From the IMG/VR virus record IMGVR_UViG_2648501437_000024, positions 1 through 8,652 of that record: a stretch of 8,652 nt of DNA; one strand, written 5' to 3'. Within the stretch, counting starts at the first letter, position 1. Each line of letters starts with the position of its first letter. Both the position numbers and the translations under genes were made by a program. Below the pieces are notes generated by a model. It saw nothing but the letters and a program-made list of their open reading frames with translations, searched no databases and was not told where the DNA came from. This document shows, one piece after another, positions 1,270 through 2,754 of this stretch. The DNA comes from a virus (taxonomy: Duplodnaviria; Heunggongvirae; Uroviricota; Caudoviricetes).

Positions 1270-1656
1270 ATGTCTGATAACAAGATTGAATTTATAGAAA
1301 GTCGCTACGCTGCTTTTATCGCAGGGTTGATTGAATCCTCACCTATGAGCCAGGCCCAGATAGCCAAAACAATTGGGTATAAAAACGCCAACAACCTTTC
1401 TTTAATTAAAAGCGGCAAAATTCCTTTGCCTATCGATAAGGTTCGTCCGCTGGCGCTGGCACTGGGTATTGAGCCAAGTCGTCTTATGATGATGGTGCTG
1501 GAAGAACGCCAACCCGAACTCGCAGCATTTTTATACAAAGAAGGCACAGCTCCTCTTAACGAGGACGAAAAACAGGTTCTTGCTGCATATAACGAGCGAT
1601 TCGGTAAAGAGAAAGGCGCATCACAAAAGGTTGTTGAGGCCATAAAGTCTCTATGA
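1270..1656 (+). CDS. XRE-family helix-turn-helix transcriptional regulator (Cro/CI-like)
   Basis: 128-aa ORF; segment SQAQIAKTIGYKNANNLSLIKSGKIPLPIDKVRPLALALGIEP fits the HTH_3/XRE pattern; divergent from the leftward genes, and its stop codon abuts the recombinase stop on the other strand. Confidence 0.75.
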   Translation: MSDNKIEFIESRYAAFIAGLIESSPMSQAQIAKTIGYKNANNLSLIKSGKIPLPIDKVRPLALALGIEPSRLMMMVLEERQPELAAFLYKEGTAPLNEDEKQVLAAYNERFGKEKGASQKVVEAIKSL

Positions 1657-2754
1657 AAAATTTACACGAATAAGCTCTGTTGATAGACGATCTCCCTTAA
1701 ATTTGTGGTCAATTTCGTCTAAATCCGGTTGCTCTACGATTGATGCGATGTACGTCGAGAAACTTTCTAAGGCGTCTCGCATCTCGTCCATATAATCGTG
1801 CCGGTCGTAGACCCGATCTATCCCCTCAAGACTGTGGTTCATGATTTTACGTGATACCTCCTGGCTTATGCCTAATGCTGGGAAGTAACTACGCGCAGTA
1901 CGGCGCAAATCTCGGGGTGTAAATGGCTCAAGCTCCATCAGTTCTGGTCGTTCCAGAATACGACGTAATGCCTGGGCTATTGCCACTTTAGACATAGGAA
2001 GGTCTTTCCCGATTTTTTTATTCGAAGGCACGAGCCACTGGCTGTCTTTACCATATTCGAACAACTCTTCAATACAAGTGCGCATTAATGAGCTTAAAGG
2101 CAGAGAATGCTCACGGGCAGATTTGTTCCTCTTGCCTTGATTCCAAACCCCACGCTTAAGATTGAACTCACTTTTTTTAGCCCGCAGTACTTCGTCAGGT
2201 CGTCTTGCGGATACAAGACATAGCCTGGCCGCCCATTTTGTACCAGCACACACATTGAAGTAGTCCCATATATTCCAGAACACCCATACCTCTGCGTCGG
2301 TCAGCTTCCGCTCGCGAGGTGTGGGCTTTGCGCCACCGGCAACTTTGTTAAGTGACATATCGTTTAACGGTGACACGTCTATCATCCCCTGGAAGGCGCA
2401 CCAGCTAAGGAACTGCTTCATCAGAGAGAAAACGCGGCGGCCCATAACAATTTTGCCATCCAGTATTAGTGGGTTGACCAGTTGGTTCACCATGAACCTA
2501 TTAATGTCACTTACTTTTACATCGGCAAGGTGCGGCAAAACATGTATCAAAATACAATGAACAGCGATCTCTGGCCGACGTCTGGTTATCAGCAGAGATA
2601 AGCGAGTGAATAACATGAATGCGTCCGAGAATCTCATGTCATTGCTGACCTGGGAGATCATAACGGCCTGCATTTGAGATGCTCTTTCGAGATACTCTAT
2701 CGCCTCTTTTGAGGTGTTCTCCGCAGCGCGTGCTCTGTCAAAGCTATTTTTCAT
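1651..2754 (-). CDS. int: tyrosine-type site-specific recombinase/integrase (P4-like catalytic domain)
   Basis: 367-aa ORF; catalytic-domain landmarks LVSARRPDEV (box I Arg), KRNKSAREHSLPLS, FTPRDLRRTARS (box II), NHSLEGIDRVYDRHDY (His and Tyr nucleophile region); GGTGA RBS about 7 nt upstream of the ATG at 2754. Confidence 0.85.
   Translation of the reverse strand: MKNSFDRARAAENTSKEAIEYLERASQMQAVMISQVSNDMRFSDAFMLFTRLSLLITRRRPEIAVHCILIHVLPHLADVKVSDINRFMVNQLVNPLILDGKIVMGRRVFSLMKQFLSWCAFQGMIDVSPLNDMSLNKVAGGAKPTPRERKLTDAEVWVFWNIWDYFNVCAGTKWAARLCLVSARRPDEVLRAKKSEFNLKRGVWNQGKRNKSAREHSLPLSSLMRTCIEELFEYGKDSQWLVPSNKKIGKDLPMSKVAIAQALRRILERPELMELEPFTPRDLRRTARSYFPALGISQEVSRKIMNHSLEGIDRVYDRHDYMDEMRDALESFSTYIASIVEQPDLDEIDHKFKGDRLSTELIRVNFS

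Follow-up and report, generated by a model that had tools for sequence, protein, structure and literature searches.

The window analysed here is a stretch of 8,652 nucleotides, positions 1 to 8,652 of IMG/VR virus record IMGVR_UViG_2648501437_000024, from a virus of the Caudoviricetes. It contains a gene for a tyrosine recombinase, read from the minus strand, and upstream of that gene a 33-bp palindrome made of two inverted 13-bp arms around a 7-bp spacer. Judged from the sequence, gene and palindrome on balance appear to form a self-contained Cre/lox-like module that would serve mainly to resolve plasmid multimers. The features on which this reading depends are the following.

1651..2754, minus strand: tyrosine recombinase gene, 367 aa (open reading frame, Pfam, AlphaFold2, alignment)
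1912..1914, minus strand: codon of Arg281, at the position of the box II histidine, His-II (translation and alignment)
1903-1905, minus strand: codon of Arg284
1807-1809, minus strand: codon of the Tyr316 nucleophile
2853..2885, no strand assigned: candidate recombination core site of 13-7-13 layout, AATGATTCCATAC-ATAGTAG-GTATGGAATCATT, ~100 bp upstream of the recombinase start codon

The recombinase and its family

The gene is an intact, maximal open reading frame (ORF) without a frameshift, and its product has the length of 99%-identical database proteins, behind which are hundreds of sequences. The protein is laid out as an N-terminal helical stub (residues 1-40), a core-binding domain (~41-140) and a catalytic domain (~150-340). 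Pfam Phage_integrase (PF00589) matches residues 172-320 with 40.6 bits against a cut-off of 27.1, and Phage_int_M (PF22022) matches residues 71-133 with 21.9 bits, below its cut-off of 27. Because the latter match covers profile positions 31-93 of 96, and so begins at position 31, the core-binding domain should begin near residue 41. A precomputed PF22022 match is present in many family members, and a profile search of PDB sequences aligned the core-binding domain 2kj5, solved by nuclear magnetic resonance, to residues 59-142. The arm-binding domain PF13356 (DUF4102) gave no Pfam match in the window protein at E <= 0.01.

Structural comparison gives a similar picture. An AlphaFold2 model built from 24 family sequences (predicted local distance difference test, pLDDT, 84; predicted template-modelling score, pTM, 0.74) contains three short helices at residues 7-35 and core-binding helices from residue 42, and the beta-sheet arm-binding fold is absent from it. 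The best Foldseek matches of the model are to lambda Int residues 75-356, which is Int minus its arm domain, and also to Tn1549 Int, Xer proteins (XerH, XerA), IntI (2a3v) and Cre. A single-sequence search of PDB sequences with phmmer found nothing for the recombinase, and the profile search yielded only marginal matches to XerH and the core-binding domain, with Cre not matched. On sequence and predicted structure, the recombinase is an intact protein of two domains, core-binding and catalytic (CB+CAT), without an arm-binding domain.

The active site carries one departure from the canonical set of residues. Minus-strand translation of 1903-1926 reads PFTPRDLR, with RDLR in place of HxxR, and Arg281 aligns with the His of HxxR in the nearest integrases that bear an arm domain. 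In an alignment anchored on a hidden Markov model (HMM), the box II column holds Arg in 108 of 108 family sequences, versus His in 148, Arg in two (one of them a family fragment) and Lys in one of 151 outgroup integrases. Residues R185, K211, R284 and Y316 are the sole ones at their columns in the family sequences covering them, and H307 (His-III) is nearly fixed, with Gln in four; the catalytic columns are covered by 104-112 sequences. The invariance of Arg281 rests on protein searches and on the HMM-anchored alignment, and not on the genome loci, which were fetched by family-specific peptide patterns including RDLRRTAR and are therefore unusable for arguing it. By these alignments Arg281 is a fixed trait of the family and no error; domain architecture and residue identities are in this sense directly established. 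His-II is ~87% conserved in the tyrosine recombinase superfamily, with Tyr at ~7% and Gln at ~1%, and in Cre its replacement by Arg is among only five inactive substitutions (PMC2943603). The combination of a fixed Arg281 with a conserved nucleophile, conserved arginines and a conserved lysine argues for an active site that has been adapted rather than one that is dead.

The family is sharply bounded. A word-indexed search returned ~113 proteins of 44-100% identity, nearly all of 340-395 aa and none with PF13356; beyond them the score falls sharply to proteins of 24-34% identity that carry PF13356, PF22022 and PF00589. In a profile search of 1.8 billion cluster representatives the family, whose proteins are of ~365 aa and collapse into two representatives at 50% identity, gave those two at 558 and 530 bits, followed by a next match at 204 bits. 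The nearest relatives are integrases of 400-430 aa, and the seven found with precomputed Pfam domains all carry PF13356. These P4/SXT-type (IntSXT, DUF4102) integrases share with the recombinase a Phage_int_M-type core-binding domain, the catalytic domain and the DLRRT context of box II. A profile alignment pairs family residues ~13-45 with outgroup residues ~70-130, so the family is short of its relatives' first ~55-70 residues.

An earlier reading of the same letters by eye, referred to below as the preliminary description, had proposed a missing arm-binding N-terminus, some 45 residues ahead of the core-binding region, P4-like kinship of the catalytic domain and an Arg at the box II His position; the Pfam searches, the model and the alignments bear out the missing domain and the Arg, and sequence comparison the kinship. 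In the published classification DUF4102 is the hallmark of the IntSXT subgroup, and mobile-element integrases arose from simple recombinases by gain of an arm-binding domain (PMC8138268). As far as sequence comparison can tell, the present family is an isolated offshoot of P4/SXT-type (IntSXT) integrases; it no longer has the beta-sheet portion of their arm-binding domain, and has thus run in the direction opposite to that scheme.

The palindrome and its plasmid setting

The preliminary description had also named the 13-bp palindrome at 2853-2885 as a candidate site, and it proves to be both real and conserved beside the gene. No comparable perfect inverted repeat arose in 200 shuffles of the window. 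When 700 bp upstream of the gene were scanned in 64 genomic loci, the palindrome was recovered in 63, with arms of 11-17 bp and a spacer always of 7 bp; the lone exception is a truncated gene fragment. With the window and plasmid pJN2-26 included the count is 65 of 66 loci, at 60-268 bp upstream, distances that are approximate because tblastn match starts only approximate the start codons.

The arms vary together with the protein. They read ATGATTCCATAC where the protein is at least 56% identical to that of the window and GTGACTCCAGAC where it is 45-52% identical, and the two base changes between the clades occur in both arms, as one would expect if two identical subunits read the site. Three Chimaeribacter genomes (locus pairs L010/L063, L011/L055 and L012/L060) contain one gene from each clade, and beside each gene stands the arm type of its clade or a hybrid of the two: one member of the pair has ATGATTCCATAC arms and the other a hybrid, slightly asymmetric site (GTGACTCCATAC / GTGACGCCAGAC). 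This arrangement suggests that these genomes host co-resident systems of diverged specificity. The conservation of the site and its co-variation with the protein are direct observations.

The spacer behaves differently from the arms. It is AT-rich and drifts (TTAATAG, TTATTAG, TTGGAAG, CTACTAT and others), and both orientations relative to the gene are seen, 46 versus 16. Such a drifting, two-way spacer is expected if the site need match only its own copies. Inversion driven by the recombinase was considered as a cause of the two orientations and is unnecessary, since flipping of the loop between perfect inverted arms would be neutral for a site whose only partners are its own copies. Between the E. 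coli and Klebsiella elements, whose DNA is ~71-74% identical, the arms are identical and the spacer is different. Whenever relatives are compared, similarity breaks off 1-18 bp past the palindrome, and the cargo that follows varies, with none in the window, one gene in Escherichia phage Cyrano and three genes in pJN2-26; half-sites or repeats flanking this variable cargo beside the palindrome were looked for and none was found. In 63 of 63 loci the palindrome is intact beside the gene, with both arms, and is never split into attL and attR.

Conserved arms, a fixed spacer length, a free spacer sequence and linkage to the gene make up the signature of a tyrosine-recombinase core site, and the 7-bp spacing is the overlap length of lambda-type integrases. 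From this pattern the 2853-2885 palindrome is very probably the recombination site of the adjacent recombinase. For Cre-type enzymes, a nearby 13-bp inverted repeat together with a recombinase gene points to the true site in roughly one case out of two (PMC10250229; PMC4957104).

The distribution of the gene is that of a plasmid function. A tblastn search found it at 940 places in 933 PLSDB plasmids, essentially as a single copy per plasmid (Klebsiella 348, Escherichia 229, Enterobacter 92, Pantoea 74, Yersinia 63, Salmonella 49), and 900 of the 933 host plasmids are predicted to be non-mobilizable. In a chromosome survey that covered E. coli only, gene and upstream region occurred in 252 of 5,426 complete genomes, where all 255 places were plasmid-borne and none chromosomal, so that the plasmid-only distribution is directly established within that species. 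The members at 45-52% identity come from named plasmids of Pantoea and Erwinia, 120-550 kb in size, and from large contigs of Rahnella, where the neighbours are unrelated metabolic genes (TonB receptor, ABC transporters, chemoreceptor, MFS pump). With flanking genes unrelated on these plasmids, palindrome and gene together are all that is conserved as a unit.

Phage records with the gene number nine, all of them SSU5-like elements of E. coli or Klebsiella. The records of Escherichia phage Cyrano and 'phage CMS-2020a' match the window at 98% identity over 82-95% of its length, and Cyrano, a siphovirus genome of 108 kb, also encodes ParA, ParB, RepA and toxin-antitoxin pairs. By sequence, then, the window is an SSU5-type phage-plasmid and not a lytic phage. 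The puzzle posed in the preliminary description, a recombinase that was unexpected in a lytic phage, is thereby gone: a resolution-type recombinase is ordinary equipment for a plasmid prophage. The opinion expressed there that a simple Cre/Xer-like enzyme fits better than a classical phage integrase gains from the near-universal palindrome, its co-variation with the protein and the lack of a chromosomal copy in the E. coli set. Phage SSU5 itself is without the entire block of glutaredoxin gene, palindrome, recombinase gene and helix-turn-helix (HTH) gene. In its place SSU5 (locus L070, 3598-3762) has 165 bp that contain another inverted repeat of 12 nt, CTGTACGAACAG-N9-CTGTTCGTACAG.

Control region, half-sites and neighbouring genes

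Around the palindrome and elsewhere in the window lie further features that bear on expression of the gene and on its possible additional binding sites.

2800..2828, minus strand: putative recombinase promoter, with -35 TTGATC (2828-2823), a 17-nt spacer and -10 TAATAT (2805-2800)
2783..2798, no strand assigned: LexA (SOS) box-like CTGT-N8-ACAG, directly downstream of the -10 hexamer
2942..2961, minus strand: terminator-like hairpin and T-run, ending the upstream glutaredoxin transcript
5119..5133, plus strand: isolated half-site, an exact copy of a palindrome arm (ATGTATGGAATCATT), with no second arm
6131..6145, plus strand: second isolated exact half-site, overlapping the start codon of a 50-aa ORF (MIPYI...)
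1270..1656, plus strand: XRE/HTH regulator gene, convergent with the recombinase gene, the 3' ends overlapping by 6 bp

Since the terminator-like hairpin ends the glutaredoxin transcript, the recombinase has a promoter region of its own. The -35 and -10 elements are kept in close relatives; an automatic promoter scan did not return them, so the promoter is proposed from this conservation. The CTGT-N8-ACAG element is the sole match in the window, with 0.10 expected, and in Cyrano, pJN2-26 and the Kluyvera and Y. pestis relatives its CTGT and ACAG ends are constant and its middle variable (it lies at ~3122-3141 in locus L002 and at ~-45 from the gene start in L006-L008). In Buttiauxella it has degenerated, and the distant Pantoea-type clade lacks it. 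Being confined to the closest clade, it is no feature of the family; within the E. coli/Klebsiella/Kluyvera/Yersinia branch we infer from it that the gene is probably SOS-inducible.

Isolated arm copies (GAT-GTATGGAATCAT, also GATGTATGGAATCAT) recur in matching positions in Cyrano, pJN2-26 and a Kluyvera plasmid; Cyrano, that Kluyvera plasmid and the Y. pestis relative have one more within the DNA polymerase gene (half-site positions are 37801, 38813 and 47008 in Cyrano, 8165 and 9153 in L002, and 2323, 3346 and 7874 in SSU5, L070). Their polarity is mirrored: copies on one side read like the near arm and those on the other side like the other arm. Where a second arm would stand, only 0-4 of 13 positions match, so these are not full sites. 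SSU5, which has no recombinase, keeps all three copies, two exact in coding DNA and the non-coding one mismatched, and Pantoea-type loci have no half-sites within 10 kb. From these patterns the half-sites could be regulatory binding sites of the recombinase, or a motif conserved for some other reason.

The recombinase gene is accompanied in the window by a CobT-like gene, a small ORF, the convergent XRE-type HTH gene and the glutaredoxin gene; further genes comprise an AT-rich foreign ORF, three tRNA genes, small ORFs and a gene for an ATP-dependent ligase. The 6-bp overlap of the convergent recombinase and HTH genes, at 1651-1656, is shared by Cyrano and pJN2-26 and makes transcriptional interference between the two possible. 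The HTH gene is kept as a neighbour only within the SSU5-like clade and is therefore probably outside the core module.

Several observations concern the remainder of the window. A 302-aa ORF at 3385-4293 (plus strand) sits in an island of 29-31% G+C within surroundings of ~45%, is missing from Cyrano at the corresponding position and has phrog_35492 (unknown function) as its sole match, with none in Pfam, NCBIfam or PADLOC; it is probably horizontally acquired cargo. Between tRNA-Ser and tRNA-Thr, at 4522-4706 (minus strand), lies a match to the STnc100 small-RNA family with 44.8 bits against an Rfam gathering threshold of 47 (E 2.6e-7). Phages P1 and P7 have a block of tRNA-Asn and tRNA-Thr that is ~90% identical to the one here. 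Three long near-perfect inverted repeats, at 5193-5314, 5386-5474 and 4394-4471, with arms of 20-23 nt that are 38-82 nt apart, occupy the ORF-poor region around the tRNA genes; they could represent structured RNAs or what is left of tRNAs. On the recombinase, scans with Rfam and PADLOC were uninformative.

Function, alternatives and meaning

Multimer resolution is the favoured function because the protein is of CB+CAT type, the site is single, symmetric and adjacent, site and gene are the sole unit conserved across unrelated plasmids, the gene is found on plasmids alone in E. coli and the site is never split. The module would be carried by large, low-copy, mostly non-mobilizable plasmids of Enterobacterales, including SSU5-type phage-plasmids. 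We infer that each 13-bp arm would be bound by one recombinase monomer through its core-binding and catalytic domains, that two sites in a plasmid dimer would synapse as a tetramer, and that Tyr316 would cut at either edge of the 7-bp spacer; strands would then be exchanged in sequence by way of a Holliday junction, yielding two monomers and letting partition work. Descent from P4/SXT-type (DUF4102) integrases would have involved loss of the arm-binding beta-sheet and fixation of Arg in place of the box II His, and the loss of the arm domain would have removed the machinery for directional integration and excision. In the E. coli/Klebsiella/Kluyvera/Yersinia branch, where repression by LexA is probable, transcription would rise when SOS and RecA activity yields more multimers. 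More tentatively, and with less than even confidence, the sequences may record re-invention of a Cre/lox-type system from a heterobivalent P4/SXT-type integrase by deletion of the arm domain, with an active site that works with Arg at His-II.

Several known systems resemble the proposed module, each in part. Cre/loxP of P1, Dre/rox, Vika/vox, Panto/pox and Nigri/nox likewise pair a two-domain recombinase without an arm-binding domain with two 13-bp inverted arms and a short asymmetric spacer, near the gene and on a plasmid prophage or plasmid, and by analogy their multimer resolution without accessory factors is the role expected here too. Cre differs in having no detectable sequence homology to the recombinase (Foldseek 10-13% identity, E 0.03-0.2), in a spacer of 8 bp as against 7 bp here, in His289 at the position of the Arg and in its evolutionary origin. 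Panto/pox, from Pantoea, was considered as a member of the family and rejected, Panto being a Cre homologue 41% identical to Cre (PMC4957104). The P4/SXT-type integrases, although the nearest relatives at 24-34% identity, have DUF4102, His-II and an attP with arm sites, whereas the family has a symmetric palindrome and is never chromosomal in E. coli. Xer systems (XerC/D, XerH-difH, XerA) match in CB+CAT architecture, palindromic core site and multimer-resolution function, the last proposed here, but Xer is a chromosomal housekeeping gene and the present module is plasmid-encoded and plasmid-specific; to our knowledge its arm sequences are unrelated to dif. IntI/attI of integrons also has no arm domain, a site just upstream of the gene and a LexA box in the promoter. 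Unlike IntI, the recombinase gave in NCBIfam only a weak generic integrase-domain match and none to an integron-integrase family, its loci lack an attC cassette array and its site is a duplex palindrome.

Certain facts weigh against the resolution reading. Activity is not to be assumed, since the His-II to Arg change is inactive in Cre (PMC2943603). The palindrome, which stands just upstream of the promoter, could be an operator instead. SSU5 grows as a phage without the module, which lytic growth, at least, therefore does not require. SOS control is no obvious fit for a housekeeping resolvase, and a resolution role leaves the conserved half-sites unexplained.

A role in the phage cycle, either by closing infecting DNA into a circle, as Cre is able to do for P1, or by taking part in SOS-induced lytic development, would suit a phage-plasmid host and a promoter LexA box that occurs in the phage-plasmid clade only, and it has the P1 Cre precedent cited in PMC7969092. 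It is nevertheless unlikely: the same module occurs on Pantoea and Rahnella plasmids of 250-550 kb whose inspected 8-kb flanks hold only metabolic genes, the Cyrano site is ~41 kb from the terminase genes and so unlikely to fall within terminal redundancy, and SSU5 forms plaques without the module.

It is improbable, too, that the protein is a dead or crippled recombinase acting as a DNA-binding regulator, with the palindrome as operator and the half-sites as secondary binding sites. The loss of Cre activity with Arg at His-II (PMC2943603) would fit such a protein, as would a palindrome ~25 bp upstream of the -35 hexamer and exact half-sites, one where a gene starts and one between genes, that are kept among E. 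coli, Klebsiella and Kluyvera elements. Yet fixation of the Tyr, both Arg and the Lys, and near fixation of His-III, down to 44% identity would be hard to explain without catalysis, and a 13-7-13 layout is what a tyrosine-recombinase core site looks like. The half-sites are wanting near Pantoea-type loci and are retained by the recombinase-less SSU5, and may thus be independent of the recombinase.

Integron integrase (intI) genes are under LexA control, and the LexA box in the present promoter raises the thought of a platform for capture or exchange, in which the palindrome, as a counterpart of an integron attI or of a site of plasmid fusion, would insert DNA circles or plasmids with compatible sites under SOS conditions. 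The end of similarity 1-18 bp past the palindrome, with different cargo after it, and the AT-rich foreign ORF nearby could be read in the same way. There is little probability in this, for the variable segments have neither a second site nor an attC-like repeat at their ends, each of 63 loci has one site and NCBIfam gives no integron-integrase match; ordinary mosaicism, moreover, also predicts an intergenic module boundary.

The classical integrase of phages and islands, inserting its element into the bacterial chromosome like the P4/SXT-type relatives, is largely refuted and very improbable, for although public records say 'integrase' or 'site-specific integrase', the closest relatives outside the family are DUF4102 integrases and tRNA genes lie ~1.7 kb away, the protein has no arm-binding domain, the site is symmetric and without arm-type repeats, the palindrome is whole in all 63 loci with no attL/attR split, none of the 255 E. 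coli occurrences is chromosomal and 900 of 933 host replicons are non-mobilizable plasmids.

Tyrosine recombinases have been listed among the persistent genes of the SSU5 supergroup, in an account that gives neither site nor mechanism (PMC7969092), and searches of the literature on the arm sequences, on integrase function in SSU5, pMT1 and pHCM2 and on multimer resolution in phage-plasmids yielded no description of the site or the enzyme. More than 900 plasmids have the gene annotated as 'integrase', among them those of Y. pestis at 96-101 kb (the size of pMT1) and phage-plasmids of Klebsiella and E. coli. The evidence is that elements with this gene do not integrate, and 'plasmid-maintenance recombinase' is the better label, a change that matters for the typing of phage-plasmids said to 'lack integrases'.

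With its perfect 33-bp palindrome in two diverged specificity classes, the gene is also a source of candidate orthogonal recombinases for genome engineering. If the recombinase is active on the 33-bp site without host factors, the family would represent a new active-site solution for tyrosine recombinases, and would provide mutually orthogonal recombinase/site pairs, with ATGATTCCATAC-type and GTGACTCCAGAC-type arms, that are SOS-controlled in phage-plasmids. The fixed Arg at His-II, inactive in Cre, poses a testable question about activation of the tyrosine. For the evolution of these enzymes, the comparison indicates that an arm-binding domain, once gained by mobile-element integrases (PMC8138268), has been lost again in this family.

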